Positions 34,720-64,000 of a stretch of 64,000 nt of DNA are shown here, piece by piece (the first letter of the stretch is position 1; each line of letters opens with the position of its first letter). A program made the translations under genes and the position numbers. Origin of the DNA: Candidatus Latescibacterota bacterium (lineage in GTDB: Bacteria > Latescibacterota > UBA2968 > GCA-2709665); NCBI GenBank assembly GCA_965203805.1, contig OZ241917.1, positions 192,001 through 256,000 on the forward strand, read 5' to 3'. The notes beneath the pieces were generated by a model that was not told where the DNA came from, did no database searches, and saw only the letters and a program-made list of their open reading frames with translations.

Positions 34720-34762
34720 GAGGAACGGTGTACAGCAAATTTGCCAGGAGGTATCAGTGTCT

Positions 34763-37378: not shown

Positions 37379-37380
37379 GC

Positions 37381-37601: not shown

Positions 37602-37637
37602 AGTTATTTACAGTGTATTGGAAACGACGAGGACGAT

Positions 37638-42739: not shown

Positions 42740-42888
42740 AGGTATGGAATGGCAAACGGCCCCCGACAGGAGCCAACGTGAAGGTTTCAGCATCATGAGG
42801 TCATCCGGATTCGAATGGTAATGACTCCGTACATTGACTGCGTTGCCGACGCGCCCCAAGGCACGTCTTCCGCAAAGGACGTACAAAC

Positions 42889-43130: not shown

Positions 43131-43480
43131 ATGACTCACATTACCGACACTTTAATCGACGACATGGTTCAAGCGATCGTCGACGAAGTGGATCCCGAGC
43201 AGGTGATCCTCTTTGGCTCCCGCGGGCGCTGCGGGAGGGTAACGTGCTCTATGAGCGACGTTAAGTGTGCCAGGATGCTTCTTCGGGCGGCGGAGCGCGG
43301 GATATAACCGCACGCAGATTTATGTGCGGTCCGAGCGATTACAGGCCCTCCGCCTTGCCGCGTCGCAACCATAGTGTTGGCCCCGATGCCGAGCCCATTG
43401 ATCGACAGGACGCTCTAGCACTCGTAGAGACACTGAGGGGACACGTTGGGCCAGAGTTACCAGAAGCGGAGGCCGGGTGA
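43131..43480 (+). pseudogene. MNT-HEPN toxin-antitoxin remnant
   Basis: MNT N-terminus 'MVQAIVDEVDPEQVILFGSRGR' ends abruptly, followed by HEPN-like pieces 'MSDVKCARMLLRAAER' and 'AEPIDRQDALALVETLRGHV'. Confidence 0.7.
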
Positions 43481-44661
43481 TGGCGTGGCCCATGGCGGAA
43501 TTGAACACGGTAGCCGAAATTCGGGGAGGAGCCACCCCGCGGCGCGACAACCCGATATACTGGAATGGAGACATCCCCTGGGTTACACCTACCGACCTGC
43601 CAGCGCTTGGGGAGGGCATTTCAGAGCTGGATAGTACCACAGAAGCGATCACCAACGAAGGACTTGCGTCCTGCTCAGCCCGCCTTCTTCCGCCCGGGAC
43701 GGTTCTGTTCTCTTCGCGTGCGACGATTGGAAAAGTCGGAATTGCAACTGTCCCGCTCGCGACGAACCAGGGATTCGCAAATTTCATACCTAAATCTGGA
43801 GTGGAATCGCGTTATCTCGCATGGTGTCTTCATCACGCCGCTGATCGGGTCGCAGGGCTCGCCGGCTCGACAACGTTTAAGGAGGTCTCAAAGAGCTCAT
43901 TTGGGCGTTTTCGCATCCCAATCCCACCACTCTCCGAACAACGCCACATCGTCGACATCCTCGATCAGGCCGACCGCCTCCGCCGTCTCCGAGCCGAAGG
44001 CGATGCCAAAGCAGCGCGCATTCTGCCAGCCCTTTTTATCGAAATGTTCAGTGATCCGGCGACAAATCCGATGGGGTGGCCAGTCAGGCCCTTTGACAGT
44101 GTCTGTGAGTCTCGACTTGGCAAGATGCTGGATCAAAAACAGCAGACTGGCCGACATCGACGTTTTTATCTTAGGAATGCGAATGTTTATTGGGATCGGT
44201 TGGACCTTCGCGAAGTTCTTGAGATGGACTTCGACGAGGCAGACCGCGATGAATTCAGACTAAGGAAGGGAGACGTCCTGATCTGTGAAGGTGGAGAGGT
44301 TGGTCGTTGCGCCATTTGGAATGACGAGTTACCGGAGTGCTACTTCCAAAAAGCCCTCCATCGAGCACGTCCCTTTCCGAGCACTGCGACTTCTGAGTAT
44401 ATCGTATTTCTATTTCTGTTGTTGGCGCAGCGCGGCGCTTTGCTGGACGCCGCCTCCAAGGTGACATTTTCGCACTTAACAGGCGTAAAGTTGAAAGGGC
44501 TGGCAATTCCAGTACCGCCTTTCCATCTTCAGGAACGATTCTCTTCGAAGGCGCGCGCGACAAAGAATGCTCTGGAACCGGCCGCATTGGCACAGGATAG
44601 AATCAGTTTGGCGAATACGGTCCTCTTGAACCGCGCTTACTCCGGTACACTGACAGCTTGA
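43477..44661 (+). CDS. hsdS: Type I restriction-modification specificity subunit (orphan)
   Basis: Two TRDs ('GGATP...YWNGDIPW', 'SSRATIG', 'NQGF'; 'LGKMLD', 'GDVLICEGGEVGR') with conserved 'IPIPPLSEQ..IV', 'NPMGW', 'IPVPP..LQ'. Confidence 0.92.
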   Translation: MMAWPMAELNTVAEIRGGATPRRDNPIYWNGDIPWVTPTDLPALGEGISELDSTTEAITNEGLASCSARLLPPGTVLFSSRATIGKVGIATVPLATNQGFANFIPKSGVESRYLAWCLHHAADRVAGLAGSTTFKEVSKSSFGRFRIPIPPLSEQRHIVDILDQADRLRRLRAEGDAKAARILPALFIEMFSDPATNPMGWPVRPFDSVCESRLGKMLDQKQQTGRHRRFYLRNANVYWDRLDLREVLEMDFDEADRDEFRLRKGDVLICEGGEVGRCAIWNDELPECYFQKALHRARPFPSTATSEYIVFLFLLLAQRGALLDAASKVTFSHLTGVKLKGLAIPVPPFHLQERFSSKARATKNALEPAALAQDRISLANTVLLNRAYSGTLTA

Positions 44662-44853
44662 ATCGAGAACTGTGCTTGAGTGAATCAGGTGCAACAAAAG
44701 CGGAAAATTGCCGAATTGTGGGGGGCCGGGGGCCGTCAATAAGCAACACGGGAGTCGGCAGGAATGCCGGAGTCCTTAGCGGGGTCGCCGGGTTGTGCCG
44801 AACAATGACTCGAATACATACCGTGATCGAACACCTGGAACCAGATTGCCGCG

Positions 44854-46566
44854 TTGGTGACCGTCATGACAAGACAAGATGTTGTGAATGGAACACAGTG
44901 TGACGCCAAAGATCTAGTGAAAAGTCGCTCGCTTGAAAATTCGACGGTGGATCCTAGACGACTCCGAGGAGTATATTACACGCCGGACGCAATAGCGGGC
45001 CTCTTGGCAGAATGGGCGATCGCAGCGGAGCCAGGCACTGTACTGGATCCCAGCTTTGGCGGATGCGCGTTTATGAACGCGGCAACGAGAGTCTTAGCTA
45101 GCAGGGGTATCTCGTATCCCGGGCGTTTAGTTTTCGGCGTAGACGTTGAACCCTCTTGCTTGGAATATGTACGCGCAAGCACAAATCTCGTTGAGACAAA
45201 CTGCACGATCAACGACTTCTTAACTCTTTTGCCCGAGGATATGCATGGTGCTCCGTTTCAGGCGGTTATCGGCAATCCGCCATACGTGCGTCACCATTGG
45301 CTCAAAGGAACCACCAGAGAGGCTGGCAGCACAGCCATAGAAGCCACGGGGGTAAACCTTTCCGGCAGGGCGAGCGCGTGGGCATATTTCCTGATTCACA
45401 CAATGAACTTTATTGCAACGAATGGTAGACTTGCGCTGCTTGTTCCCGAAGCAATCCTTCAAGCCGACTACGCTACCGCAGTCAGAGACTTCCTCCGAAG
45501 TTCCTTTAGTCATGTTTGCCTCGTTCACGTTCGCGATCGTTTATTTGAGGACACCGACGAGGCTGTTGTCGTGGTCGCTGCTTCGGAATATGGAGGCAAC
45601 GGTGGCCTTCTGCGTGTTGAAGCAGTCGAGTGCTCAGAGGAACTGGAGGCGGTTCTAAATGCTCCAAGCAGCCGGAAAGCTAGTTTACAACTCGTAACTT
45701 CGAAAGGTCGTCGCGTTGAGTCGCTGACTTTGGAAGTGCTTAGTGAATTAGAGCAACACCCGTCAGTACGGCAGATCCATGATTTCGCGACTGTGAAGGT
45801 TGGCGTGGTGACAGGTGCTAATCAACACTTCATCCGCAATGACAATGACATGAAGCACCTCGGTGTCCCCCAAGAATTTTGGGAGCGGCTAATTTCACGT
45901 ACGCGATGGCTTTCAGGATTGGAATTCACTGAAGAAGATCTTCATCGACTCGCGGACGCAGGCCATCATACAATATTGGTTCGCCCTCTGTCAACGATTG
46001 AAGAGTCTTCCGGCATCCAGCAGTGGATTGCGGAAGGCATGGAGGCAGGAATTCACGAGCGGTACAAATGTAAACTGCGACGTCCCTGGTATCGTGTCGA
46101 CTTACAGGCTGCACCGGATGCCTTCGCTACATGCACCCGTCTGGGCGCTCCCCTGCTCGTACTAAACCTAGCAGGCTGCCGATGCACCAATGCACTCCAT
46201 GCGATGTATTGGCATCAGGGAATCGAGGTCTCGCCGTCGGCCATCTCTGTAGGGTTCCTCACAAGCGCGGTCAGTGTCTGGGCCGAACTCCACGGCCGTC
46301 GGTACGGAGGAGGCGTTTTGAAGATCGAACCTAGCACCTTGAACCGAACGCCGGTACCGCTCGTTGAGAATTCGGAAGGTGCTTTCGACGAATTGAATCA
46401 ACTCATTCGATATGGCCGAGAAGCCGAAGCCAGGGCGCTGGCGGACGATCTGGTTCTTGGAGACCGATTGGGATTAACGAAGAAAGATATCCGGCGACTA
46501 CAGCGGGCACGCACGCAATTGATGGCCCAACGCCGACCCGTCAGAAATGGAAGTGACCATGCCTAA
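44854..46566 (+). CDS. N6-adenine DNA methyltransferase (gamma class, Eco57I/HsdM-like); start may be 44866
   Basis: 'GVYYTP', motif I 'LDPSFGGCAF', 'GVDV', catalytic 'GNPPYVR', 'GVVTGAN', 'GRRYGGGVLKIEP'. Confidence 0.9.
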   Translation: MVTVMTRQDVVNGTQCDAKDLVKSRSLENSTVDPRRLRGVYYTPDAIAGLLAEWAIAAEPGTVLDPSFGGCAFMNAATRVLASRGISYPGRLVFGVDVEPSCLEYVRASTNLVETNCTINDFLTLLPEDMHGAPFQAVIGNPPYVRHHWLKGTTREAGSTAIEATGVNLSGRASAWAYFLIHTMNFIATNGRLALLVPEAILQADYATAVRDFLRSSFSHVCLVHVRDRLFEDTDEAVVVVAASEYGGNGGLLRVEAVECSEELEAVLNAPSSRKASLQLVTSKGRRVESLTLEVLSELEQHPSVRQIHDFATVKVGVVTGANQHFIRNDNDMKHLGVPQEFWERLISRTRWLSGLEFTEEDLHRLADAGHHTILVRPLSTIEESSGIQQWIAEGMEAGIHERYKCKLRRPWYRVDLQAAPDAFATCTRLGAPLLVLNLAGCRCTNALHAMYWHQGIEVSPSAISVGFLTSAVSVWAELHGRRYGGGVLKIEPSTLNRTPVPLVENSEGAFDELNQLIRYGREAEARALADDLVLGDRLGLTKKDIRRLQRARTQLMAQRRPVRNGSDHA

Positions 46567-48889
46567 GTTTACTGTCGACACGCACTTGTTTCGCGAGTTG
46601 GGGGAGCTGTTGGTCGGGCGCGACTCAACCGCGCTCATCGAACTGATCAAGAACGCCTACGATGCCGATGCGACCGAGGTTACCGTCTATGGAGAGCGGC
46701 TCGATAGTCTAGATGAAGGCGGCATTCTGATTACCGATAACGGGGTCGGTATGACCGCGGATAATTTTGAGAACGGATTCTTGCGGATCGCTTCTAGGAT
46801 GAAAGAGCACGGAGAGCGGCGATCCAACGTATTTCAACGTCGTTACACCGGCGCCAAGGGAATCGGCCGACTCGCCGCCCATAAGCTTGCCAGAAAGCTC
46901 GACGTAGATAGCGTTCCGCGAGACTCTGAGCCCGAGGGGCTTCAAGAAATCGTGCACGCCGAGATAGATTGGGATAAGATCGAGGGGTACGAAATTCTGG
47001 ATGAACTTGACGCTACCGACGCGATTCGTCTGGAAACGAAGACGGTGCACGAAAACGCCGTTCCCGGCACGACGCTCGTTCTCTCTCGGCTGCGGCGAGT
47101 CTGGACAGAAGTTGAGCGTGCGAGGTTTTTTGCCGAGGTCCAATCTTTCGATCCTCCCTCATTCCTACGCGAGCCGCTCCCTCGATCAGTCGTCGAAAAA
47201 CCACTGCTGTTCGACACGCCGACTGTCCGGGACCATGGTAACGACGCTGCGGCCTCCTCATTCAAAGTGAATCTTGAAGGGGACTTTGCTGCTGGCGAGA
47301 ACTACTGGGCGCTCGTTGCCGAGGTTGCGACTTGGGTGCTGGAGATAACGGCAGTTGCCGGCAGCGACGAAGTGCATTTTGCCATTGCGCCAACGAAAAG
47401 AACACGCAAGGATAACCCGGAAGCGAGGGAGTACTACCATTCGATCCGTCATCCCACTCCCGGAAAGGGTCCGCATTTCGAGGCACGTATCCTGGTCAGA
47501 GAAGGGCGCGTTAGCGGCAGCCGGGACCAGCGGGTGTGGGCGACGCGAGTCAGCGGAATCCGAGTTTATCTGGAAGGTTTTCGCGTCTTACCCTATGGCG
47601 AGCAACAGGACGATTGGCTCTCGATTGACGCGGACTATACGAGACGCCCGCGGCAACTCGAGATGCTTCAAGAACTCCGTCTTGGTGCAGAAGCGACCGA
47701 CCCCGACGAGGGCCTCATTCGCGTGCCGAACAACAACTACTTTGGAGCGGTTTTTCTTATCCAGGAACGCTGTCCCAATCTTCGTGTTCTCGTGAACCGA
47801 GAGGGATTCATCCCCGAGGCCGGATTTGACACATTGGTGAAACTCGTGCGGACAGGAATCGATTTTTGCACGCGCGCGAGGGCAGCAGCGGCCCACGCGC
47901 GCCGCCAACGAAGGAAGGAAGACCGTCGTCGAGAACCAAAGGCCGCATTGGGTCAGACGGGAGAGGTAGAAGCCAGTGGAGCTACAGACGAGGCGATTGA
48001 GGAGCTTGCGGCGCCCAACCGGCTTCGAGGTGCGGTTCAGCTCATGAAAAAAGCTCGCGTGCACCTCAGCGCGGGAGATACCACAACAGCCGAAGTCACC
48101 ACTAACGCGGCCCTGCAAGAACTAGGCGAAGCGACTGATCTCGTCGAGGACCTGTGGTCCGAACGATCTCTCCTGCACATCCTTGCGTCCGTGGGAACTC
48201 AGATGGCCGCTTTCGTCCATGAAATCAACGCCTTGATCGGAGCGGCACAAACCATCGAACAGGCCCTGGAATGCGTCCTCAAAGAGAAAGGGCTGTCTCA
48301 AGAACGGCGCCGAACGCTAAGGGAGATAGTTACGGTCGCCACGGACCTGAAGCGTGGGCTGGAGCGCCAGGCTGCCTATCTGATAGACATCGAAACGCCC
48401 GACGCACGCCGCCGCCGTTCGCGCCAGCGTTTAAGCGAACGCTTCGAAGCTGCGGTTCGCCTCGTTAGGCATCAAGCGGACCGCCGAGACATTGACATCG
48501 ACAATCAGATTCCATCTGAATTAAGATCTCCCCCGATGTTTCCTGCTGAGGTTACGGCGGTATTTGCCAATCTCCTGACCAATGCGGTTAAAGCCGCTGG
48601 AGAGGATGGACGTATCCGTGCTTCGGCATCCAGTGAAGGCAATCAAGTACAGATTCGTATTCAGAACACCGGTGACGCCGTCAATCTTGATGAATCAGAG
48701 CGCTTGTTTAAGCCATTCGAGTCGACGACATTGGAAGTAGACTCAGTATTGGGTCAGGGAATGGGGCTGGGGTTACCGATTACACGGAACCTGTTGGATA
48801 ACTATGGGGCGTTAATAGATTTCGTCGATCCAACCGATCCGTTCGCGACGGCTATTGAGATCACCTTTCCAGGCAGGAGTCAACCTTAG
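46559..48889 (+). CDS. GHKL (MORC/MutL-like) ATPase fused to a histidine kinase
   Basis: N-terminal GHKL motifs 'ELIKNAYDADA', 'DNGVGM', 'GAKGIGRLA', 'GTTL'; C-terminal H-box 'FVHEIN', N-box 'NLLTNAVKA', F-box 'LFKPFEST', G2 'GMGLGL'. No TM segment. Confidence 0.88.
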   Translation: MPKFTVDTHLFRELGELLVGRDSTALIELIKNAYDADATEVTVYGERLDSLDEGGILITDNGVGMTADNFENGFLRIASRMKEHGERRSNVFQRRYTGAKGIGRLAAHKLARKLDVDSVPRDSEPEGLQEIVHAEIDWDKIEGYEILDELDATDAIRLETKTVHENAVPGTTLVLSRLRRVWTEVERARFFAEVQSFDPPSFLREPLPRSVVEKPLLFDTPTVRDHGNDAAASSFKVNLEGDFAAGENYWALVAEVATWVLEITAVAGSDEVHFAIAPTKRTRKDNPEAREYYHSIRHPTPGKGPHFEARILVREGRVSGSRDQRVWATRVSGIRVYLEGFRVLPYGEQQDDWLSIDADYTRRPRQLEMLQELRLGAEATDPDEGLIRVPNNNYFGAVFLIQERCPNLRVLVNREGFIPEAGFDTLVKLVRTGIDFCTRARAAAAHARRQRRKEDRRREPKAALGQTGEVEASGATDEAIEELAAPNRLRGAVQLMKKARVHLSAGDTTTAEVTTNAALQELGEATDLVEDLWSERSLLHILASVGTQMAAFVHEINALIGAAQTIEQALECVLKEKGLSQERRRTLREIVTVATDLKRGLERQAAYLIDIETPDARRRRSRQRLSERFEAAVRLVRHQADRRDIDIDNQIPSELRSPPMFPAEVTAVFANLLTNAVKAAGEDGRIRASASSEGNQVQIRIQNTGDAVNLDESERLFKPFESTTLEVDSVLGQGMGLGLPITRNLLDNYGALIDFVDPTDPFATAIEITFPGRSQP

Positions 48890-48891
48890 TC

Positions 48892-50004
48892 ATGAAGAAG
48901 ATCAATAGGCCATCAATTCTTGCAATTGACGATAAACCTGATGAATTGATTCCTCAATTCGCTCTAGATCTGAATAGCCGCGTAGCGGCACGTGTAATTC
49001 ATCCTCAGGATGTAGATATATCGGACCTTGAAGATGCCGATCTGGTTCTGGTGGACTATCGCCTGGACAGTTGGCGGGAAAGGGACGTTCTCTCGACCGC
49101 TTCACTACAGCCAGCAACGGGAATGGCTCTAGCGACTATTCTGAGAGAGCTGGTAGATAAAAATGAAAGAGATAGATTGACGGCATTTGCGTTGCATACG
49201 GCTCATCTCGGCGATATTAGAGGCCGTTTTCCTTCAGGGACGGCTCAACACGTTCTTGCGCGTCTGAACAACCTGGAGTGGATTTTTCCTAAGACAGAAC
49301 CTAATCGTCATTACCAGATGCTTCTTCTTGCGAAGGCCGTACAACGACTTCCTGACCGATGGCCGGATAACTCGACTTCAACGGCAAGGCAGCTTCTCGA
49401 TATGGATGAGGACGACGATTCGTTTCAGAGTTGCTGGCACGATGTTCGAGACTGCCGGGTGCCAATTAATGAGTTGACGACAGGTGGACACGGCATCCTT
49501 TTCATACGATGGTTGCTTCATCAAGTATTGCCGTATCCCACCTTTTTGTGGGCAGAGCATTGGGTTGCGGCGCGCCTTGCAATTTCGGTTGGTGTCCTTC
49601 GCGATATACTGGCGGGAGATAGTCTTTTGGCTAAAGACTTGAAAGCCATGCGCTATTCTGGGATTCTGGCGGGATTTCTCGGAGTTAGGTGGTGGCGAGG
49701 TGCTCTCGAGGACTACGTTTGGAAATTATCAGGAGGATCCACGGCTGATGCACAACTATTGCGGAACGCCCTAGTCAAGCGTGCAGGGGTGGATTTGGAT
49801 CAAATTGACGCGCATCCTGCAGTCGTTTGTATGGACAGGGATTTACAGCCCACCGGCAAGTTTTTAACGCCAATGACCGCGATTGCTATCCACCCGGACC
49901 ACTGGCCCCCATTTGCTGACGCAGCCTGGATAGACATCGAAACCGTGAGACATGACACTACTTTGCTGTCCATGGTGGATCCTCTTGACCCTCGCCTTGA
50001 ATGA
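48892..50004 (+). CDS. Response-regulator receiver domain + uncharacterised C-terminal domain
   Basis: 'ILAIDD', phospho-acceptor 'DLVLVDYRL', 'TGMAL', 'LHTAH', 'IFPK'; no HTH output domain recognised. Confidence 0.78.
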   Translation: MKKINRPSILAIDDKPDELIPQFALDLNSRVAARVIHPQDVDISDLEDADLVLVDYRLDSWRERDVLSTASLQPATGMALATILRELVDKNERDRLTAFALHTAHLGDIRGRFPSGTAQHVLARLNNLEWIFPKTEPNRHYQMLLLAKAVQRLPDRWPDNSTSTARQLLDMDEDDDSFQSCWHDVRDCRVPINELTTGGHGILFIRWLLHQVLPYPTFLWAEHWVAARLAISVGVLRDILAGDSLLAKDLKAMRYSGILAGFLGVRWWRGALEDYVWKLSGGSTADAQLLRNALVKRAGVDLDQIDAHPAVVCMDRDLQPTGKFLTPMTAIAIHPDHWPPFADAAWIDIETVRHDTTLLSMVDPLDPRLE

Positions 50005-50741
50005 AGATGAACAGGAAAATAATAATGGCTGGATTACGGTTTAAGGTGATTGAACTTGTACAGGAAACCAAAGCAATGATAACCATGGGAACAGGTTTCT
50101 TTGATTCGCGAACATCGTGGGCATTGGACCAGTTCCTGCGCGATCTCCAAAGGATTGGTAGTAGGGTACATACAGGAAGTTCTCGGTTGGTGCTACAATG
50201 CCTTCACACTAAACCGAGCGACAAATACGAGGCTGGTCGACGTCGAGGTGGTAAACGGATACACGCGGTAATTGCAGGCACTTGGGATCTGCGACCGTTA
50301 GAGAAGCGCGAGATAGAATTCTGCGGGATCGCTTCTACTAAGGTCGAATTGTACGCTTCGGACGATCCGAACGAACGCTTGGCAATGTGGCGTTTGGAAC
50401 TGGGTGCTGAGGACAGCCCGGGCTGCTACGTACACGCTCAGATACTGGGGGACACCGAAAAACCGCCATTCCCCAAATCACTACCGATTCCCAGATTACC
50501 TAGCCTCTTCGTCACTCCAATGAGCGCTGTAGAGTTCGTACTCTGCGAACTTTTCCAGGACGATTGGGCTAAGGCGATCGCTAAAAAGAGTCACGCGGCC
50601 GACGATTGGCGTGCGCTGCAAAAAAAGTGGCTCCATAAGCTGTTTTCATGGTACAGAGAACAAATAGAAAAAGCGGGTTCCTCTTCTTGGGTGACATTAA
50701 AGGAGGCGAAGCCAAAACACAATATGTTTCTTCCACGTTGA
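50001..50741 (+). CDS. Hypothetical protein, last gene of the MTase-HK-REC operon
   Basis: ATGA overlap with the REC gene; 'WRLELG...PGCYVHAQI...IPRLPSLFVTP..AVEFVLCELF' loosely resembles DUF2290-like proteins. Confidence 0.65.
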   Translation: MKMNRKIIMAGLRFKVIELVQETKAMITMGTGFFDSRTSWALDQFLRDLQRIGSRVHTGSSRLVLQCLHTKPSDKYEAGRRRGGKRIHAVIAGTWDLRPLEKREIEFCGIASTKVELYASDDPNERLAMWRLELGAEDSPGCYVHAQILGDTEKPPFPKSLPIPRLPSLFVTPMSAVEFVLCELFQDDWAKAIAKKSHAADDWRALQKKWLHKLFSWYREQIEKAGSSSWVTLKEAKPKHNMFLPR

Positions 50742-50881: not shown

Positions 50882-51106
50882 ATGAACAATAAGATAATCA
50901 GCAGGAATCCCGGCATCCTCTGCGAAACCCCCGTGTTCTCTGGGACCAGGGTGTCGATACGTATTCTGTTCGAATACTTGGAAGCAGGGGACCGTCTCGA
51001 AGACTTCCCTGACAGCTACCCCACGGCGTCACGCGATCAGGCGATTGAAGTACTCAAAACCGCGAAGATGACGCTGACCGGGAAATCGGATGAAGCTGTT
51101 GTTTGA
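50882..51106 (+). CDS. DUF433 antitoxin
   Basis: 'IISRNPGILCETPVFSGTRVSI..LFEYLEAG..LEDF...YP'. Confidence 0.88.
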   Translation: MNNKIISRNPGILCETPVFSGTRVSIRILFEYLEAGDRLEDFPDSYPTASRDQAIEVLKTAKMTLTGKSDEAVV

Positions 51107-51215
51107 CAAGTCCCTGCCGATACCGCTCGAAGCTTACTTCCCGGGATCATTTGATATACTTACGGTTTAGCGCATGGACTGGACGAGGTAATCAAACGGT
51201 GAGCTACTGTACCTG
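51090..51215 (+). pseudogene. DUF5615 PIN-like toxin pseudogene
   Basis: MKLLFDKSLPIPLEAYFPGSFDILTV*RMDWTR*SNGELL: two in-frame stops, then loss of frame; overlaps the DUF433 stop as expected for this TA pair. Confidence 0.8.
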
Positions 51216-51265: not shown

Positions 51266-54200
51266 GTGAAACTTCCCGAGGGCCGGGTGCCAGGTCGCCT
51301 GTTCTGCTGTGTAGTGTGGAATGCAGGTTTATTCAATACTCCAATTATCCATCCAGGAGGTATTATTACACTCTGTAATGAAGAGAATACCATTGCTGTT
51401 CTCCTGGCTACGTCCAACCGGACATATCTGCTGAAGAACCGGGCGCTTCCATCGATCGAGCAGCAGTCCCGTCCCCCGGCCCGGGTGATCATCGTCGATG
51501 ACTCGGGCGATGAGGCTGCCGCCGAACGAACCGGGCTGATAGTCCGGCAATGGCAACGGGCCCGAATGGATGTGGATTTTCTACACAACCGGCGCACGAA
51601 GGGGGCCGCAGGTGCGTGGAACTCAGGTTTAGATCACCTGCTGCGAACATGCTGTGACCCAAGACAACAGTACGTCGCAATCTTGGACGACGATGATCAG
51701 TGGCATCCCCACCATCTGCGCACATGTCTGGCGACCGCCGAGAAAAAAAGCCTTGACATGGTCGCGGCTCCGTTTCTTCGGGTGGAAGAGAACGCCAAGA
51801 CCCTCTTGACGTCTCCGCCAGCATCACTCGATGCGGCGAACTTCTTGGTCGGTAATCCCGGTATCCAAGGCAGTAATCTGGTTTGTCGCCTGAGCGTGTT
51901 ACTTGAAGCAGGTCTGTTCGATGAATCGCTGCCGAGTTGTACCGATCGCGATCTATGCATCCGCATCGCGGAGTTGCCCGGCGTTCGGTACGGTTCCACC
52001 ACGGAACCGACTGTCCATCACTTTGCTTGCGAGTCAAGACCTCGATTGTCAACACCCGGGTCGCACGACAAGGTCAGGGGGCTGGATCGATTCTTCCGCA
52101 AGTACAAGGGGCGTATGTCCGATGTCGAGAAAGTAGCGTTTTGCGCCCGCGCCGAGAGACTTTTCGGATGGAAGGAATCGCCGCAATCACCCGAAGCTGA
52201 AGGTCGTCTGCACGGCGGCCGACTGTCATCAGCCTCTCCAACACTGGCGCCACGTCAGGCACCGCCCCACTTGGTCGTCGGGGTGGTTGCCGACAATGCC
52301 AGGCACAAGGAGGTGGGAAATCTTCTCGACGATCTTCACGGGTTGGCCGATGCGACTGACTTATCGGGCTACGACGTCTTAGTCTTGGAGAACGGCGACG
52401 ATGGGACGCCCAGCGACGAACTACGTACACTAATCGAGCGCGAGCGTAGTAACGGTCTGAGTATCCATTTTATGGACCGTGCGCGGCATTTGCAAGATGC
52501 CACGAGCGGACGGGTTCTCGACGGTGGCGTGAGTAAGGAAGTTAGGTTGTCAATCGCCCATGCGCGGACGGTATTGCAGACGTACCTGTACGCATTCGCT
52601 AAAAGACGGCCAGGTGCGGTGGTTTGGATCATCGATGACGACATGCGGCTCGACCCGTTGTTCATTGAGAAAAATGGAAGCCTACAACGGCGAGCAAATA
52701 AGATTGCACCGATACTCCGAGAGCTTCGCCGACTCCGTGCCGGTGGGATCGTCGATATCGCAATCGGGACGTACACTGGAGCGGCGCCTTTGCCGTCTTT
52801 CGCAACCGTACGTGTTCAGGTCGTCGATTTGATCGCGTCGCTATGGTGGCTGGCGTCCCAGAAATCTACAGACTGCCTTCCGGATCGAGGGATGGAGAAC
52901 GCCACGTGGCGGTCCGGCCGGCGCGACTACTATTACGATCTGTCGCGCAAAGAGACAGATCGATTGGAAGCCCCGTTCTGGATCACGCCCGCGTTTCCCG
53001 GTGAAAAGGTCGGTTCAGCGTTCGTGCGCGTAGCTGGCATTGCGGAGCGGATCCTCGCTGGCGAGCAGGTCTTCCGGCCTCTTGCATTGGAGGCCAATCT
53101 CAATCCTCTCGATTTGATCGGTGAAGGGCTTCAGCGAGGCGGCAATACCTTTGTGCTCGATGTCGAATCTCTGAAGCTGGCCCCTAATCCATCACCGATC
53201 ATCGACGGGCGACCGAGCCGCCGTGCTGACATGATTTGGGCGTTGCTGCAGAAACGCTACTTCAGCCGTCAGATCGTCACCTTGCCGTTCGGCCTGTTTC
53301 ACGACAGATCACATGTCGCCGCCGCCGAATTGGATGTCGCCGACATCGTCGACGATATACGTGGATACGCGATGTTCTCAGCGCTTGAGGACATTCCTGG
53401 GGTATTCAAGATCACCACGGATGACCGGGGCATTCGTTTGTCCGAAGAAATGGTCGTTTGTTTCGCTCAGCGCGTCCACAAATACCTCGAAGAACGGCGG
53501 GCCGCATTTCGCCTTTCATTCTACCGAATCCGCGGTCTGATCCGTGTCTTACGAAGGCTAATGGACGACCCAGAAAATTGGTGGCAGGGAGTTGAATATC
53601 GAACTGCGGTAAGACAACTTCGGACGTTTTCCGAACGCTTGGCCGATTTCTACAAGATGGAGACTCTGAATCGCATTGAACGCGGAACTGAGGAACTTGA
53701 TGCACGCCGCATCGCCGAGTTTCTTGAACATCTGCCAATCGAAATTGAGAGCCATAGAAGGCGGCTTTCGGATATCTCGGCTCTGGTTCACAGCCTTGAG
53801 GGCGACAGGATCGCGAACGCCAAGGCCATTGCCACGCGACTGGCAGTACCCATCGGTGTGCTTAAGGTATTGGGATGCGGCATGGAGGGAGTAGCCCTCA
53901 CCGATGGCACCAGGGTATTTAAAGTCTTCGATTACTGGTGGAAGCGTTCTCACAAACTCTCGGCCCCTGCGTTCCTGCGTTCGCTTGTCGGCGCCTGGAA
54001 GGACACGCACGCTCTCTATCCGCTTCATGATTTCGTCGAGTCGGGACATCAAAAGGTGCTGACGTACTCTTATGAAGTCAGCACACCTTACAAGGGCGGT
54101 CACGGGCCCTCCATGGTTAATCTGGTCGCCGAATGTCGCCGGCATGGTATCGTTTGTCGAAACATCGATCCAGACAACCTGCGTGTAGTTAATGGACGGA

Positions 54201-56647
54201 TTCGGCTGATCGACTACGGTTCGGACATCCACCCATTCGATGAAGATGAATTCCATACGATGTGCCAGCGCGCTTGGCTATCATATCGCTGGGCTGACCG
54301 TTCAAACTTAAAAAACATCATGCGCGAGGCGCTGACGGACGAGAAAATACCTGAACTCGATGGTTTTGAGCGGTTCTACGAGGCAATTCGAAAGGTTACA
54401 GGTCAGCATGAAACGCCGAAGGATGTTGTGCTGAATTTTGTTGAGAAAGCCGAGCGAATTCTCGACTACGGGTGTGGCAAGGGATGGCTTGCCCGAGAAA
54501 TTTCGGACATGGGCAGGGATGTCTTTGGTTACGATCCTGGAGAAGCATACAAGTCGCGTTGGGAGTCACTCTGTCGGAAACGTGAAAACCTACGATTTGC
54601 GGATGATCTGAGTGACGCGTTGGCGGCGGGTCCATTTGATCTTGTTGTTTGCCGTCGTGTGCTTTGCACGATTGAAGACAACGAAGAATTTAGGACGATT
54701 CTCAGCGATTTGCGAAATCTGGTCAGCGAGAGTGGTCGGGTATTGGTTACCGTTTGTGACCCAAATTTCACGTTCGGTGGTTCGACACCTGAGGCTGACC
54801 GTGAACTGCCCCCTGATGCCCGTTACGAGAGTGTCTTCAGGTGGCTCAAGAGGGTGCGCGAAACCGGCAGGGTGCGCCTCGAGGTGCACCGACCCGAGCG
54901 GATGCTTCGGCGAGAATTTGCTCTGGCAGGTCTGGCGGTGTGTCGCCGTGTCGAAGTACCTACAATTGATCTTGAGCGATTCGAACCATCGTCGGACCAG
55001 TTAGTCTTTGAACTCAGCCCAATAGCGCCACTGCCCGGCGAGGTCACGCTAATGATCAAGGCATGTGGCATGGAAGCTGCTACTTTGGATGTGCAGGTTC
55101 GCCACCTTGTTTCACAACTGGAGACCTCGAGGGCTTTTACCGAGCGAATTCTGGTAATCGACTCCCGTGAAGATGAATTCCTTAGGCAACACACCATTGG
55201 GAACTTGGCCGATTTGTATAATGCGGCGCGTCGTTTGGAGCAAGCAGGATGGATCGACCGGATTGTTGACGGGCCGAATGACGTCGACGACACGGTATTG
55301 CTAAACAAGCGGTGGTTCGGAATTCCCTGTCGTACGGCTCACGCTTACAGCGGCGCTCAGATCGCCTCTACGCTGAACGGATTCGATGCATGTTCCACCC
55401 GGTACGTCCTCCAATTGGACGTTGACGTCATGGTTGGCCGACTGGACCGTAGTCATGATTATCTAGCGGAAATGCTTTCAGTGTTGCAGCGCGATCCGGA
55501 AGCGGTCACGGTATCTTTCAATGTAGCGATGGACCATGATCGGCCCTATACGGAAGCGGGAGAGACGGGGGCGTGGCGTGTGGAGGTGCGCGCAGGATTG
55601 ATAGATCTCCAACGTCTTTTCGACGCTCGGCCGCTACCGAACCGGCTCCGCGGAGAACGTCTGGAATTTCACTGGTACCGAGCCCTAGATCGGCAGATCG
55701 CGCAGGGTAGGGGTCGTTCATATCGCGGCGGCGACCGTCGAACCTACTTCGTGCACCCGCCCAATGTTCGCAAGCGCAATATTACTGAGTGGTTCGCAAT
55801 ACTCGACCGCATTGAACACGGTGTGGTCCCGTGCGTTCAATTTGGAAACGTGGATTGGGTCGGCGACAAGGTGAGCTGGATGGGACCGCAGCGGTTAGAA
55901 CAGTTCGTCTTTGTGGTATCGGGTCGTAACGTGCAGCCGGGGCGGTTTCGTCGTTGCATCGAGTCATTGGCTAGACAGAAAGGGGCACAATGGGGCGCCG
56001 TGGTTATTGATGACGGATCGGACCCGATGTTTGCCGAACACTTTGAGATCGCTTGCCGGCCGCTCGTAGAGCGTTGCACGGTCATTCGTAACCGCCGTCG
56101 TTGTGGATTGCTCGTCAACATGGTAACTGCAATTAGGCAGTTATGTGCCGATCCCGAATCGGTCATTGTAACTCTCGATTCTGACGATGCCCTGATCGGC
56201 GATCGCGTTCTGGAAAGACTTGCAGCAGAGTACGATCGGGGAGCCGACGTGACAGTTGGTACAATGCTGCGGATCGACAAGGACGCCAATTATCCGGTTT
56301 GTTTCGATCAGCCGCGGCGACACCGTGGAGGAAACGTTTGGCAGCACCTTCGGTCGTTCAAAAAACGGCTTTTCGATGCCATTCCTGACGATGCACTTCG
56401 GCTCGATGGAGACTATATCGACCTCGCCAATGACTGGGCGTACATGCTGCCGATTGTGGAGATGGCAGACATGCCCGTACATATTGCTGAACCACTTTAT
56501 CTTTACGAACCTTCAAGGATTTGGAAAGGAGCTGATCGAGCACTTCGCGAGGAAGTCATCGCACGCATCGCCGCCAAGGACACGGTGTACCAAGACGAGA
56601 CGTGCAATGCGTACAGCGAAAAAATCGACGCAAGGGTCAGGCGATAA
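51266..56647 (+). CDS. Giant multidomain protein: GT2 + GT-A + kinase-like + SAM methyltransferase + GT-A + GT2 (start uncertain)
   Basis: Acidic GT motifs 'IIVDDS...AILDDDD', 'WIIDDDM', 'LQLDVDV', 'VIDDGS...TLDSDD'; kinase-like 'LGCGMEG...VFK', 'CRNIDPDN', 'LIDYG'; MTase 'ILDYGCGKG', 'FDLVV'. Confidence 0.82.
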   Translation: MKLPEGRVPGRLFCCVVWNAGLFNTPIIHPGGIITLCNEENTIAVLLATSNRTYLLKNRALPSIEQQSRPPARVIIVDDSGDEAAAERTGLIVRQWQRARMDVDFLHNRRTKGAAGAWNSGLDHLLRTCCDPRQQYVAILDDDDQWHPHHLRTCLATAEKKSLDMVAAPFLRVEENAKTLLTSPPASLDAANFLVGNPGIQGSNLVCRLSVLLEAGLFDESLPSCTDRDLCIRIAELPGVRYGSTTEPTVHHFACESRPRLSTPGSHDKVRGLDRFFRKYKGRMSDVEKVAFCARAERLFGWKESPQSPEAEGRLHGGRLSSASPTLAPRQAPPHLVVGVVADNARHKEVGNLLDDLHGLADATDLSGYDVLVLENGDDGTPSDELRTLIERERSNGLSIHFMDRARHLQDATSGRVLDGGVSKEVRLSIAHARTVLQTYLYAFAKRRPGAVVWIIDDDMRLDPLFIEKNGSLQRRANKIAPILRELRRLRAGGIVDIAIGTYTGAAPLPSFATVRVQVVDLIASLWWLASQKSTDCLPDRGMENATWRSGRRDYYYDLSRKETDRLEAPFWITPAFPGEKVGSAFVRVAGIAERILAGEQVFRPLALEANLNPLDLIGEGLQRGGNTFVLDVESLKLAPNPSPIIDGRPSRRADMIWALLQKRYFSRQIVTLPFGLFHDRSHVAAAELDVADIVDDIRGYAMFSALEDIPGVFKITTDDRGIRLSEEMVVCFAQRVHKYLEERRAAFRLSFYRIRGLIRVLRRLMDDPENWWQGVEYRTAVRQLRTFSERLADFYKMETLNRIERGTEELDARRIAEFLEHLPIEIESHRRRLSDISALVHSLEGDRIANAKAIATRLAVPIGVLKVLGCGMEGVALTDGTRVFKVFDYWWKRSHKLSAPAFLRSLVGAWKDTHALYPLHDFVESGHQKVLTYSYEVSTPYKGGHGPSMVNLVAECRRHGIVCRNIDPDNLRVVNGRIRLIDYGSDIHPFDEDEFHTMCQRAWLSYRWADRSNLKNIMREALTDEKIPELDGFERFYEAIRKVTGQHETPKDVVLNFVEKAERILDYGCGKGWLAREISDMGRDVFGYDPGEAYKSRWESLCRKRENLRFADDLSDALAAGPFDLVVCRRVLCTIEDNEEFRTILSDLRNLVSESGRVLVTVCDPNFTFGGSTPEADRELPPDARYESVFRWLKRVRETGRVRLEVHRPERMLRREFALAGLAVCRRVEVPTIDLERFEPSSDQLVFELSPIAPLPGEVTLMIKACGMEAATLDVQVRHLVSQLETSRAFTERILVIDSREDEFLRQHTIGNLADLYNAARRLEQAGWIDRIVDGPNDVDDTVLLNKRWFGIPCRTAHAYSGAQIASTLNGFDACSTRYVLQLDVDVMVGRLDRSHDYLAEMLSVLQRDPEAVTVSFNVAMDHDRPYTEAGETGAWRVEVRAGLIDLQRLFDARPLPNRLRGERLEFHWYRALDRQIAQGRGRSYRGGDRRTYFVHPPNVRKRNITEWFAILDRIEHGVVPCVQFGNVDWVGDKVSWMGPQRLEQFVFVVSGRNVQPGRFRRCIESLARQKGAQWGAVVIDDGSDPMFAEHFEIACRPLVERCTVIRNRRRCGLLVNMVTAIRQLCADPESVIVTLDSDDALIGDRVLERLAAEYDRGADVTVGTMLRIDKDANYPVCFDQPRRHRGGNVWQHLRSFKKRLFDAIPDDALRLDGDYIDLANDWAYMLPIVEMADMPVHIAEPLYLYEPSRIWKGADRALREEVIARIAAKDTVYQDETCNAYSEKIDARVRR

Positions 56648-56898
56648 GGATTATTTTCGTTGTAGCGGTTATTTTGCGGGAACCATGCCGCGAACTCTTC
56701 TGTTATGATTCAGACGAAAAATGGGCTTTTTCGGTTTATGTATAAGCCATAAGTTGGACTCAATAGATGGAGGAGTCCGTATCGAAGAAGCGGTAGCAGT
56801 AAAGCCTATTGCCGCAAGCTATCACGGGGTTTTTATAGTTGATATAATAATCCTGTGTAGGAGGAGCGAGATATTTCAATTATTCTACGTTCGAACAG

Positions 56899-57177
56899 AT
56901 GCTAATCAAACTTACTATCCGCATATCTAGACGCTTCCGAGAGGTTGAGATCGAATTGGGGAGTCCGGCGGGCTTCATCGGACCCAACAACTCGGGCAAG
57001 ACCTTGGCCATGCAGGGGCTGGCGTTATGGGACATTGGGCTGATGCGCTGGAATGAGAAGCGCTCCGGCAAGAGTTCACCCGAGAAACCCCCGGGAGTCA
57101 CGATATACCGGTGTGAACTCGTTCACTGCGTCCCCGAACCGAAATTCGGATTGAACTCGACGCAATTTCGGATGTAG
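56899..57177 (+). pseudogene. 5' stump of an ABC/AAA ATPase
   Basis: 'MLIKLTIR...F.EVEIELG...FIGPNNSGKT' then ends after 92 aa with no Walker B. Confidence 0.75.
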
Positions 57178-57208
57178 CCGATAGTGCGATTTCTGCAGGA
57201 GATTCAAC

Positions 57209-58936
57209 ATGAATCTTACAGCCTTCAGTATCGCTAACTTCAAGGCCTTCGCCGATGCTCAACGCATTCCGCTACGGCCCATCACATTGATCTACGGCGC
57301 TAACAGTGCCGGAAAATCGAGTGCGATTCATGCGCTCGCACTTGCGCATCACGCTATCGAGACCGGAGACCTCGACGTACAGCGGACCCGTATCGGTGGC
57401 GAGTCCATTGATCTTGGCGGTTTCCAACAGTACGTACATCGGCGTGAACACACCAGAGACGTCGAACTCGGTTTCGAATTGGATCCAACCGGCCTCGTCG
57501 ATCGCCTTCCGGATTCGCTGGACTCGACGTACAAGATCGAGGCGGAACTGACAATCGGAGAAGCGGATGGCGGCGTAAGAACTGCATCATCAGGTAGTCG
57601 TACTCGCGGCGTGTGCCTTCATCGCTTTGTGCTGAACATTGATGATGCAGAGTTGCTTTCCATGAGCGCCAGGCGTGGGGGGCTGATGGGCATGAATCGA
57701 ATTGACCACGAACATCCGGTCCTTCGGGATCTTTTTCGTCGCCAACTGTTGCAGGTTACGGAGAGTCGAGAAAATCTCGATACAGACGTCGCCAATCTCC
57801 ACCAAATGCTCAGGCTGCTGGTCCCCAATATCACGGCCACGTCCGGAGGAATATTCCCTCGAATAAGAAAGGAGTTTGCCGGTAATGATCTGTATGGGAG
57901 CAGGCGGGAGGACACCGTACGTGCAATCGTACCAATCGACGCGATAAACGATCTCATGGTGGGACTTGGCACGGCCCTTGAGGACGAATTAGATAGACTC
58001 CGCTACCTTGGCGCGTTAAGATCGTATCCTCCCAGACATCATGTCTTTTCACAGCACGATGATCCAAACAGGTACGCTGGTGGCGGCTATGCCTGGGACG
58101 TAGTTCGTGATAATCCGGAAGTGCGTAGACTCGTTAATGAATGGCTGGGTGACTCAGAACGGCTGAAGACACCTTACGAACTCCAGGTACGTGATTTGCT
58201 ATCGACAGACATGGTGTCCCGCGATGTGCGAGGAAAGATTCGCAAGGCGCTACACGATCTTCTAACGTCACTTCTCAGCCGAATGGACGCACAGGAACTC
58301 ATCAAATTGAAGGTCCTGGCTGATCGTCTTGCCGAGCGAATCGTAGAACTTGACCCGGAGGATGAGGAGGATTTGATCCCCGATATTGAGGAACTCGTAT
58401 CGTCGTTAAGCGACGAAGACCAGGTGTCCGAGCGGTGGGTTGAGGAGATGGTAGCGGCGCGGTCTGAAGCCCTAAAACAGCTCGTTCTCATCGACAAACG
58501 CACCGGCACCCCGATTAGTCACCGTGACGTGGGAATCGGTGTGAGCCAGGTGCTGCCGGTTCTGGTCTCGGCCTACGCATCGAAAAACAAACTACTGGCA
58601 ATCGAACAGCCGGAAATCCACCTCCATCCGGCGCTTCAGGCCGAGTTGGGCGATGTATTTCTGCAGTCGGCGTTGGGCGACAGCGACAATACATTCCTCA
58701 TTGAAACACACAGTGAACACTTGCTGCTGCGCATCATGCGACGCATGCGGGAGACGGACGCTGGCGAATTGGATGATTCATTGCCGGACGTGCATCCGGA
58801 CGACGTGATGGTACTATTCGTCGAGCCAGACGGACCACAAAGTATCGTCCGCCAGATGCCCCTCAACGAACGTGGAGAGTTGGTCAAGGCCTGGCCTGGT
58901 GGCTTTTTCGAGGAAGGAATAAGGGAAATCTTCTGA
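57209..58936 (+). CDS. ABC-type (AAA_21) ATPase with a DUF3696-like C-terminus
   Basis: 'NFKAF', 'GANSAGKSS', 'YLGALR', 'DVGIGVSQVLPV', 'IEQPEIHLHP', 'IETHSEH', C-terminal 'GEL..WPGGFFE'. Confidence 0.88.
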   Translation: MNLTAFSIANFKAFADAQRIPLRPITLIYGANSAGKSSAIHALALAHHAIETGDLDVQRTRIGGESIDLGGFQQYVHRREHTRDVELGFELDPTGLVDRLPDSLDSTYKIEAELTIGEADGGVRTASSGSRTRGVCLHRFVLNIDDAELLSMSARRGGLMGMNRIDHEHPVLRDLFRRQLLQVTESRENLDTDVANLHQMLRLLVPNITATSGGIFPRIRKEFAGNDLYGSRREDTVRAIVPIDAINDLMVGLGTALEDELDRLRYLGALRSYPPRHHVFSQHDDPNRYAGGGYAWDVVRDNPEVRRLVNEWLGDSERLKTPYELQVRDLLSTDMVSRDVRGKIRKALHDLLTSLLSRMDAQELIKLKVLADRLAERIVELDPEDEEDLIPDIEELVSSLSDEDQVSERWVEEMVAARSEALKQLVLIDKRTGTPISHRDVGIGVSQVLPVLVSAYASKNKLLAIEQPEIHLHPALQAELGDVFLQSALGDSDNTFLIETHSEHLLLRIMRRMRETDAGELDDSLPDVHPDDVMVLFVEPDGPQSIVRQMPLNERGELVKAWPGGFFEEGIREIF

Positions 58937-63663: not shown

Positions 63664-63927
63664 ATGTATCGAATCCACATAAGGAGAAGCGTACTGCGGC
63701 GTATTCAGAGGCTACCCGAATCAGTACAACGAAGGGTAGCCAACCTTGTCGAGGATCTGCGGGATAACGGGCCTATCCAAAACAACTGGCCCAACTACGG
63801 AAAACTGGGAGCGGACAGATACCACTGCCACCTCACACGGAGCTGGGTAGTCTGTTGGTCATACAGGAGAAATGCGAAAACGATCGAGGTCTATTATGCA
63901 GGCAGTCGTGAAAACGCCCCGTATTGA
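63664..63927 (+). CDS. RelE-like toxin
   Basis: 87 aa, basic; 'RLPESVQ', 'WPNYGKL', 'YHCHL', 'IEVYYAGSRENAPY'; lies upstream of an HTH antitoxin (HigBA-like order). Confidence 0.78.
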   Translation: MYRIHIRRSVLRRIQRLPESVQRRVANLVEDLRDNGPIQNNWPNYGKLGADRYHCHLTRSWVVCWSYRRNAKTIEVYYAGSRENAPY

Positions 63928-64000
63928 GATTCTCATCAAGGGAGACATCCCTGACAAGCTGATGTCCGTGCTGAATGAGCAATACGGCGAACAGGTTCGG
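63821..64000 (+). repeat. Diverged direct repeat, copy 2 (pairs with 42296-42475; runs off the window)
   Basis: Same alignment as copy 1. Confidence 0.9.
63908..64000 (+). CDS. XRE-HTH antitoxin (3'-truncated by window edge)
   Basis: 'MKTPRIEILIKGDIPDKLMSVLNEQYGEQVR', homologous to 42383-42739. Confidence 0.8.
   Translation, partial: MKTPRIEILIKGDIPDKLMSVLNEQYGEQVR

Follow-up and report, generated by a model that had tools for sequence, protein, structure and literature searches.

What does a single gene that joins glycosyltransferase, kinase-like and methyltransferase domains do in the middle of a defence island? The question is raised by a 64,000-nucleotide stretch of DNA (the window) from a Candidatus Latescibacterota bacterium (contig OZ241917.1, positions 192,001 to 256,000), in which the longest open frame of the locus occupies positions 51266..56647 of the + strand and comprises 1793 codons counted from a GTG, stop included. 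The initial annotation had described its product as a six-domain protein standing alone among defence and toxin-antitoxin genes, and had proposed that it makes a capped oligosaccharide or glycosylates DNA, protein or a small molecule. The answer that we favour, with about even confidence, is that the giant protein is a carrier-free cytoplasmic synthase of a glycan or glycoconjugate, present here as a single-gene derivative carried as cargo of the defence island.

The frame is uninterrupted over 5.4 kb on the + strand and represents a real, intact gene. A word-indexed search revealed at least 120 relatives, of which more than 100 are colinear proteins of 1,740–1,790 amino acids with identities of 56–93%; in an alignment of 27 relatives the mean column identity was 67%. 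Since so many colinear full-length relatives exist, some of them on megabase-size contigs, a chimeric assembly, which would have undone the initial annotation, is ruled out. The ratio of nonsynonymous to synonymous substitution rates (dN/dS) against two copies from the same genus was 0.18–0.22 (0.13–0.31 for individual modules), so that the gene in the window is under purifying selection.

Modelling and fold searches predict that the giant protein consists of seven parts, namely a GT2 domain, a GT75-like domain, a helical bundle, a kinase-like domain, an S-adenosylmethionine (SAM) methyltransferase and a tandem pair of GT-A domains:

51395..52165, + strand: module 1, predicted GT2-type GT-A glycosyltransferase, amino acids 44–300 (Pfam PF00535/PF13641; partial NCBIfam matches)
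52268..53425, + strand: module 2, GT-A-type domain with a predicted fold closest to the GT75 mutase MtdL, amino acids 335–720 (model, fold searches)
53444..53842, + strand: helical bundle of five predicted helices, amino acids 727–859 (secondary structure of the model)
53864..54397, + strand: module 3, protein-kinase-like domain, amino acids 867–1044 (fold searches, alignment, weak PADLOC match to PD-T4-6)
54398..55021, + strand: module 4, predicted class I SAM methyltransferase, amino acids 1045–1252 (Pfam, fold, invariant residues)
55040..55900, + strand: module 5, predicted third GT-A domain, amino acids 1259–1545 (model; aligned to K4CP jointly with module 6)
55901..56590, + strand: module 6, predicted C-terminal GT2 domain, amino acids 1546–1775 (Pfam, fold)

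The six domains described initially were recovered by Pfam, by two AlphaFold2 models and by fold searches, with coordinates agreeing within a few tens of bases. A Pfam search of the giant protein gave eight matches at E ≤ 0.1 and recognised three of the six domains (GT2 at amino acids 58–235, GT2 at 1560–1674 and class I methyltransferase at 1060–1186); the GT2 and methyltransferase matches in NCBIfam were all below threshold. Two overlapping fragments were modelled by AlphaFold2, each with a 28-sequence alignment. The fragment spanning amino acids 300–1050 reached a predicted local distance difference test score (pLDDT) of 87.6 and a predicted template modelling score (pTM) of 0.87, and the fragment spanning amino acids 1030–1793 reached 89.9 and 0.88, respectively. 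These high values point to a compact multi-domain body. Among the 27 relatives the SAM motif is invariant, and so are the metal-binding Asp motifs of all four GT-A-type domains. They include D78 D79 and D141-D144 in module 1, D1299 and D1385 x D1387 in module 5, and D1582 D1583 and D1638 x D1640 D1641 in module 6; in module 4, D1067-G1069-G1071-G1073 of motif I and D1090 are invariant.

When the model of amino acids 300–1050 was compared with the Protein Data Bank (PDB) using Foldseek, GT-A folds (MtdL at 7e-6, cellulose and hyaluronan synthases, GlfT2) and protein-kinase folds (Rio2 at 3e-5; Rio2 and CDKs within 1e-4 to 1e-5) were retrieved. The second domain had initially been taken for a glycosyltransferase. 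Its GT-A type was borne out, but its predicted fold lies nearer to the GT75 mutase MtdL (Z 20.4) than to a transferase. In VIA-align, module 2 matched MtdL with Z scores of 19.6–20.4, a root mean square deviation (rmsd) of 3.2–3.5 and 304–307 of ~371 residues aligned (at Z 20.4, an rmsd of 3.3 and 305 of 371 residues), and the next GT-A structure after MtdL reached Z ≤ 15.2. The match extends past module 2 into the following helices, to about amino acid 838. GT75 enzymes are described, in the part of PMC9937993 used here, as having a conserved DDD motif, as self-glycosylating on arginine and as converting nucleoside diphosphate (NDP)-pyranoses into NDP-furanoses. In the giant protein the DDD motif (residues 457–459) is present in 28 of 28 sequences, and the invariant R516 and R652-R653-x-D655 are, by chain order, candidates for the counterparts of Arg159 and Asp260 of MtdL. 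Judged from the model, the second GT-A domain is less similar to a transferase than to a GT75 NDP-sugar mutase. A GT75-like domain within a megasynthase is unusual in itself.

The kinase-like module aligned with AMPK and Pim-1 at Z 12.6–12.8 over ~179 residues; the similarity to APH, Kdo and RIO-type kinases indicated by Protein Atlas (scores of 0.85–0.87) counts as a lead only. Using phmmer, its segment CRNIDPDN...IDYG was aligned to HRDIKPDN...ADFG of MRCK. The residues for ATP and Mg (Gly-rich loop, Lys, Asn and DFG-type Asp, here G872, E874, G875, K886, N971 and D983) are each invariant in 28 of 28 sequences. Judged by these residues the module does not look like a degenerate relic, and the pattern points to nucleotide binding with atypical or no phosphotransfer. 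A kinase fold that keeps every nucleotide-binding residue but carries an invariant Asn at the catalytic base is unusual. The linker bundle that precedes it has a longest helix of 41 residues in the AlphaFold2 model and contains no long coiled coil of the ruler type.

Foldseek matched the model of amino acids 1030–1793 to K4CP, the chondroitin polymerase of Escherichia coli K4, with E 2e-17; the ~590 aligned columns include both GT-A domains. It also retrieved class I methyltransferases at 1e-10 to 1e-11. VIA-align gave Z 21.8 over 410 residues for the C-terminal model and K4CP, and the Pasteurella heparosan synthase PmHS2 was likewise similar. The nearest structures to the methyltransferase module are methyltransferases of small molecules (ToxA, Z 21.1; GSMT, Z 19.8), and the methyltransferase NodS (3ofj) was among the PDB profile matches with E 7.6e-5. 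The C-terminal GT2 domain is closest to WrtF (Z 20.6), followed by TarS, TarP and RmlT at Z ~19–20. WbdD was not among the best 50 matches listed by Foldseek or VIA for either model, the queries being multi-domain.

The initial remark that there are no obvious transmembrane helices was confirmed: neither a transmembrane nor an amphipathic membrane segment was found in the giant protein, whose highest 19-residue Kyte-Doolittle mean is 1.58, in the first strand of the kinase-like domain, and stays below the threshold customary for membrane segments. Likewise, the 25 open reading frames (ORFs) annotated between 22.2 and 63.8 kb of the window include no sugar-nucleotide, flippase or export gene, as had been stated. 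Location of the homologues mainly in lipopolysaccharide (LPS) or capsule clusters would have spoken against the initial proposal. No Wzx, Wzy, ABC-2 or Wza-type Pfam family was seen in the annotated flanks of ~60 related loci; the nearest to export genes there are nutrient ABC (ATP-binding cassette) permeases and one PMT_2 protein. An LPS or capsule locus is rejected, since these flanks showed no export-type Pfam family.

The linker and the kinase-like part appear to be essentially private to the family, because nearly all matches to them sit in family-type proteins. In a scan of 1.84 billion representatives with amino acids 720–1050, 327 proteins matched at E ≤ 1e-3, and nearly all of these carry the match either at ~680–1010 of a protein of 1,650–2,040 amino acids or at the N-terminus of a protein of ~900–1,125 amino acids. 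The latter look like split C-terminal halves. Matches were present in seven of 168 genomes of the phylum of the window (four full length, three partial), in full length in three of the 15 genomes of the genus, and in two of 401 genomes sampled from the class to which the relative L003 belongs. From this distribution the family is rated as rare, patchy and horizontally mobile, spreading between distant phyla. A phage collection of 50,697 records contained no family match, and plasmids carried only partial or split forms (two of 47 matching records). One of these forms, on a Pseudoalteromonas plasmid, adjoins TraV/TraC, and after it come RibA, an asparagine-synthase-like gene and an arylamine N-acetyltransferase. 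IMG/VR contigs yielded three copies of full length with SLOG (L103–L105). A tRNA adjoins the cassette in six of 43 relatives' loci scanned; the window contains no tRNA. Four contigs (L052, L075–L077) carry archaeal-type genes (ribosomal protein S6e, aIF-2-like, PTH2 and archaeal ATPase_2); apparently the cassette crosses the domain boundary there. In L075–L077 the giant gene is split into four ORFs.

Flanking ORFs in 59 loci of relatives were called by a longest-first rule, and their proteins were clustered and annotated with Pfam. A SLOG cluster-4 gene lies immediately downstream of the giant gene in 30 of the 59 loci, often overlapping its stop codon. Its LOG-type motif GGGxGTxxE is invariant in 16 of 16 SLOG partners. 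On a FastTree phylogeny of 45 full-length proteins (Shimodaira–Hasegawa-like support only), 27 were scored as having the partner and 14 as lacking it, with four unknown. As a rule, family members form a cassette of two genes, the second encoding a LOG-like SLOG protein that is sometimes fused to a NodB deacetylase. The relative G040, from the same order as the window and 67% identical to its protein, has such a SLOG-NodB fusion overlapping the stop codon of its giant gene. In the window no SLOG partner lies downstream. The initial description of the gene as standing alone holds for this copy, but not for the family, in which 27 of 41 scorable relatives have a translationally coupled SLOG gene downstream. 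The clade of the window, which includes the same-genus copies L001 and L002, is partner-less and sister to the partner-bearing G040. The tree requires at least nine changes of the "none" label. A generic genome search for the partner with PF18306 was discarded, as 13 of 14 control genomes match too. In a separate case, two near-identical giant genes (L034 and L036; tree distance ~0.04) are followed by unrelated small ORFs in L034 and by SLOG in L036, a contrast that looks like very recent loss or replacement of the partner.

Other genes recur beside the relatives. UDP-glucose dehydrogenase (UDP, uridine diphosphate) is encoded upstream in 12 of the 59 loci, and an NAD-dependent epimerase/dehydratase in 13; DUF1152-like genes occur in eight, and EEP-family and GIY-YIG genes in five each. 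The GIY-YIG gene, which recurs downstream, is regarded as a neighbour and not as part of the system, as it matches the stand-alone defence gene PD-T4-3 (1.1e-45). Nucleotide-handling genes near family members comprise LOG-like SLOG, RibA (plasmid variant), UPRTase, MazG-like and QueC. The proteins of a distant clade (~1,960 amino acids) carry a C-terminal histidine phosphatase (His_Phos_1), and some loci add a second methyltransferase. A variant in G145 (L100, 10066–19229) and G022 (L101), both from the order of the window, keeps only the GT2 and GT75-like half; its operon adds a sulfotransferase, an M20-like protein, two PhyH dioxygenases, an arylamine N-acetyltransferase, SLOG-NodB and an epimerase.

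At both ends of the window gene the surroundings have been rearranged. The features concerned are the following:

51395..56700, + strand: sole stretch with nucleotide similarity to the copies from the same genus (L001, 88.9%; L002, 86.5%)
51356..51367, + strand: candidate true start, GGAGG (51356–51360) followed by in-frame ATT at 51362 and 51365 (from the N-termini of relatives)
50882..51170, + strand: small DUF433 ORF (50882–51106) and 26-codon stub (51090–51170), directly 5' of the giant gene
56673..56694, + strand: terminator-like hairpin with a T-rich tail, 26 bases past the stop and within the conserved block (consensus scan only)
56898..57214, + strand: internally deleted remnant of an AAA_15 ATPase gene, now a 92-amino-acid ORF (PADLOC/Pfam, comparison with L001 and L002)

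The block of similarity extends from the first β strand of the GT2 domain to 53 bases beyond the stop codon. As similarity is confined to the gene and the flanking genes are altered or rearranged, the giant gene of the window is a one-gene block amid reshuffled surroundings. The first ~43 codons of its ORF are not conserved among relatives, and no ATG, GTG or TTG was found between 51314 and the first strand; three sites, GTG 51266, GTG 51314 and ATT 51362/51365, are therefore candidates for its start. The copies of L001 and L002 begin with an ATG 22 codons ahead of the first strand, and other relatives start 0–10 residues ahead of it (overall range 0–22). DUF433 proteins can be paired with a PIN-like toxin; the DUF433 ORF and the stub are a candidate for a decayed toxin-antitoxin-like pair at the 5' junction. 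The AAA_15 gene, a remnant downstream of the giant gene in the window, is intact and directly upstream of it in L001 and L002, and a homologue of 35% identity lies 3.6 kb from the G145 variant. Partnership of this ATPase with the giant protein is not established, because it is absent from loci other than L001, L002, the remnant in the window and G145.

The neighbourhood was described initially as one of defence and toxin-antitoxin genes, and the ORFs annotated between 22.2 and 63.8 kb are indeed of the defence type:

22242–27498: HTH-SNF2 helicase with NOV_C (1204 amino acids; HTH, helix-turn-helix) overlapping an AAA_22/STAND-like ATPase (557 amino acids), just before a drop in G+C
27887–29454: SMODS-type nucleotidyltransferase and, next to it, a Cap15-type receptor protein, forming a compact pair that resembles a cyclic-oligonucleotide-based anti-phage signalling system (CBASS)
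29639–40958: OLD/GajA-like ATPase-TOPRIM, then an Hma-type system (PADLOC)
43477–50741: operon of a type I S subunit, an Eco57I-like methylase, a double GHKL ATPase (780 amino acids) and ORFs of 370 and 246 amino acids
57209–62354: AAA_15 ATPase (575 amino acids; PDC-M55A, NsnB and HEC-03B-like), a 309-amino-acid ORF without a match, then an AEP-TOTE primase-helicase

The CBASS-like pair marks the left edge of the island, where G+C falls from ~0.62 to ~0.49–0.55. The Hma-type genes encode the DUF1156 methylase HmaB (8.7e-113), a DEAD-box helicase and the DUF499 ATPase HmaC (1.3e-73). In the operon at 43477–50741 stop and start codons overlap, and the ORFs of 370 and 246 amino acids have no Pfam or PADLOC match; weak matches to mad2 and mad5 suggest that it may be MADS-like. 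The neighbours also include a TIR protein, an AriA/NsnB-like ATPase and the TOTE primase-helicase, which is seemingly split into ORFs of 606 and 218 amino acids at 61697/61698. Two copies of an HTH (Xre-type) segment lie at 42305–42753 and 63830–63998, and both resemble an HTH gene that, in L001 and L002, follows the giant gene at a distance of ~0.5–0.7 kb downstream. In the window, an insertion of 7 kb of other defence genes seems to have separated the giant gene from the second copy.

Whether relatives lie near defence genes or polysaccharide loci had been put forward as a test of the initial proposal. They often stand beside defence genes, as judged by raw counts, but some loci are ordinary metabolic ones. 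PADLOC matches at E ≤ 1e-5 were obtained in the flanks of eight of 11 contexts of closer relatives and variants. They included HEC-01, Avs4, PDC-M54A, PDC-S37, type IIG/I methylases and PDC-S11, with Avs4 (4.6e-158) and HEC-01A (6e-183) in L002 as strong examples. The other three contexts contained a FitA-like antitoxin and a pPIWI-associated nuclease identified by Pfam (L020/L022), a STAND NTPase (G124) and metabolic genes only (G380). For the distant clade, 192 flank proteins (singletons plus one per cluster, at least 100 amino acids, within 5 kb) were annotated with Pfam. The set compared with PADLOC contained 148 proteins, namely 143 of the 192, with ordinary and operon genes and those below 115 amino acids dropped, and five cluster representatives. 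Matches at E ≤ 1e-12 were found for 22 of the 148, among them type III restriction endonuclease, PifA, CBASS, BrxA/B, AbiEii and PD-T4-3. Loci among ordinary metabolic genes are those of G380, L004, L033 and L083. The strong impression is that relatives are enriched near defence genes, as raw counts without a matched control or statistic. In PADLOC-DB 2.0 no system-specific model matched the giant protein itself; the only matches were mad2 in the methyltransferase region (6.4e-10) and PD-T4-6 over 48 residues (9.8e-5).

To our knowledge, multi-module glycan polymerase-terminators have so far been known from exported O antigens only. One of these is ORF6 of the Klebsiella pneumoniae O7 locus, compared here by its description in part of PMC11231755, in which a coiled coil connects a methyltransferase-kinase terminator with two GT2 polymerase modules. 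The giant protein likewise unites a SAM methyltransferase, a kinase-type module and tandem glycosyltransferase modules with DxD motifs, the latter in the same C-terminal position. However, the order in ORF6 is methyltransferase, kinase, Ig, coiled coil, GT2 and GT2, and its kinase is of a different fold (same part of PMC11231755), whereas the giant protein has the order GT2, GT75-like, helices, kinase-like, methyltransferase, GT-A and GT2. Furthermore, ORF6 belongs, according to that description, to an rfb cluster that includes wzm/wzt, and the O antigen that it caps is exported; the giant gene is linked neither to rfb genes nor to a transporter, its product has four GT-A-type modules, and its usual partner is LOG-like.

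The WbdD/WbdA pair of Escherichia coli O9a offers a second comparison, as it places a eukaryotic-type kinase fold beside a class I methyltransferase and includes a multi-glycosyltransferase chain builder. WbdD binds Mg-ATP via N356 and D369, phosphorylates mannose, ends in a long coiled coil at its C-terminus and acts at the membrane together with an ABC transporter, as far as the part of PMC3482155 used here describes. The giant protein shares the ATP/Mg residues on a kinase-like fold. In contrast to WbdD it has Asn at the catalytic base, a reversed domain order and no ruler; four features that define such systems were sought and not found, namely the Asp at the catalytic base, a ruler of the coiled-coil type, association with the membrane and linkage to wzm/wzt.

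Module 2 with its helices shares the GT-A core, the helical fold and the conserved DDD with GT75 proteins (MtdL, Hyg20 and plant UAMs). It has no detectable sequence similarity to them, however, and unlike these free-standing proteins it is embedded in a chain of 1,750 residues. Modules 5 and 6 align jointly to both GT-A domains of K4CP, but with identities of 16–17% and an rmsd of 21 Å, the latter value showing that the two domains are differently oriented to each other. K4CP and PmHS2, moreover, make exported capsule polymers. A further parallel, drawn as an analogy and not as a family assignment, is the rhizobial Nod factor pathway, in which NodC is a GT2, NodB a deacetylase, NodS a methyltransferase and NodH a sulfotransferase, and which demonstrates that no polyprenol carrier is needed for making a decorated oligosaccharide. 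Relatives of the giant gene combine GT2 domains, a NodB-type deacetylase, methyltransferases and, in G145/G022, a sulfotransferase. NodC, however, is an integral membrane synthase with its own exporter, and no acyltransferase or transporter is linked to the giant gene.

On our preferred reading, the giant protein would be a soluble cytoplasmic multi-enzyme that uses NDP-sugars at three or four sites and that, without lipid carrier or export, builds a short cytoplasmic glycan or glycoconjugate and methylates it. Its GT75-like module would either supply a furanose donor or self-prime on arginine. The UDP-glucose dehydrogenase and the epimerase/dehydratase of relatives would feed the furanose route; a UDP-xylose/arabinose route is known from plant biology. 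The full cassette would work with the LOG-like nucleotide-binding partner, a deacetylase and a phosphatase, while the window copy appears to have lost its partner, still evolves under constraint and rides as island cargo. The domain layout, its conservation, the organisation of the cassette, its genomic settings and its mobility are matters of observation; the enzymatic activity, the cytoplasmic product and the furanose supply we infer. A nucleotide-derived acceptor is an attractive guess, because nucleotide-handling genes recur and the closest fold is of nucleoside-antibiotic origin.

Several observations weigh against this reading. No Pfam GT75/RGP-type family matched module 2 at E ≤ 0.1, and the best match of its profile to PDB chains, a designed helical protein at E 0.025, was at chance level. 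As neither comparison provides a sequence-level link, the GT75 assignment is a structural lead and not membership. The catalytic-base position of the kinase-like module is occupied by Asn966 instead of Asp in 28 of 28 relatives, and the module may be limited to nucleotide binding. The kinase-like domain of the initial annotation thus stands as to its fold and its ATP/Mg residues, but a WbdD-like phosphate cap is an unsafe inference. A query with the SLOG-NodB protein of G040 at E ≤ 0.001 found it in none of the five partner-less genomes (the window genome G000, G003, G006, G168 and G380), and for that reason the product of the window copy may differ from that of the full cassette. The ATG of the closest copies, L001 and L002, is missing, and a consensus scan, whose consensus may not suit this host, found no promoter-like site upstream. 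Literature searches on the family and its architecture returned no paper and no member with demonstrated activity. Finally, despite the lack of linked export genes, carriers and exporters encoded elsewhere in the host may serve the protein.

The main competitor shares the chemistry of the preferred reading and differs on the role: the giant gene would itself be anti-phage, through a glycosylated, methylated small molecule, possibly nucleotide-derived, or through glycosylation of a phage or host macromolecule. A role in phage conflict is plausible because of the island context, and the PADLOC matches in eight of 11 closer contexts and 22 of 148 distant-clade neighbours, the recurrent nucleotide-handling genes and the nucleoside-antibiotic pathway from which the closest fold of module 2 comes all agree with it. 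However, no PADLOC system component matches the protein beyond the generic mad2 and the short PD-T4-6 hits, some relatives lie among ordinary metabolic genes, island cargo is not always defence, and the context counts are raw ones without a matched control. We consider this role unlikely, yet a serious contender. In its most specific form, it would be a new conflict system, a cytoplasmic carrier-free glyco-assembly line with its own furanose donor or arginine priming. On a primer that is either nucleotide-derived or a protein it would build a methylated glycan, and this product, or glycosylation of some component of the invader, would act against phages; the LOG-like partner would process the nucleotide handle, and the partner-less copy would be streamlined and working. 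That version is doubtful and is offered tentatively.

It is improbable that the protein is an envelope polysaccharide polymerase-terminator like ORF6 of O7 or WbdA/WbdD, acting on undecaprenyl-linked acceptors with unlinked host export, for example in receptor masking. Its glycosyltransferase pairs, kinase-like module and methyltransferase recall ORF6 and WbdD, its C-terminal pair resembles the polymerases K4CP and heparosan synthase, and its C-terminal GT2 resembles TarS, TarP and RmlT, which use lipid- or polymer-linked acceptors. But Pfam families of the wzm/wzt, Wzx, Wzy or Wza type were not seen near relatives or in the window, the protein has neither a long coiled coil nor a membrane-binding segment, the catalytic Asp is missing in all relatives, and the partner of the family is a cytoplasmic nucleotide-binding LOG-like protein and not a transporter. 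Very unlikely, in our view, is a stranded half of the two-gene cassette, useless without its SLOG partner and native start, and decaying. Such decay would fit the partner not being found in the genome with the G040 query, the replacement of the native ATG and N-terminal leader at the 5' junction, the internal deletion of the adjoining AAA_15 gene, and the relatives in G022, G124 and G145 that match over partial spans only, the one in G022 being interrupted next to a DDE transposase. Against it, the 5.4-kb frame is open with all catalytic motifs intact, each module has a dN/dS of ~0.2 when compared with two other copies that lack the partner, and partner-less copies occur in several separate clades with at least nine changes of the "none" label, which suggests that the enzyme is kept on its own.

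The family would apply an O-antigen-like toolkit in a quite different setting, namely soluble, without a linked exporter, usually LOG-coupled, spread between distant phyla and found in defence islands. Knowing its product would either bring to light a new cytoplasmic glycoconjugate or extend bacterial immunity by a mechanism based on sugars, and the single-gene copy of the window is the simplest construct with which that product could be tested.

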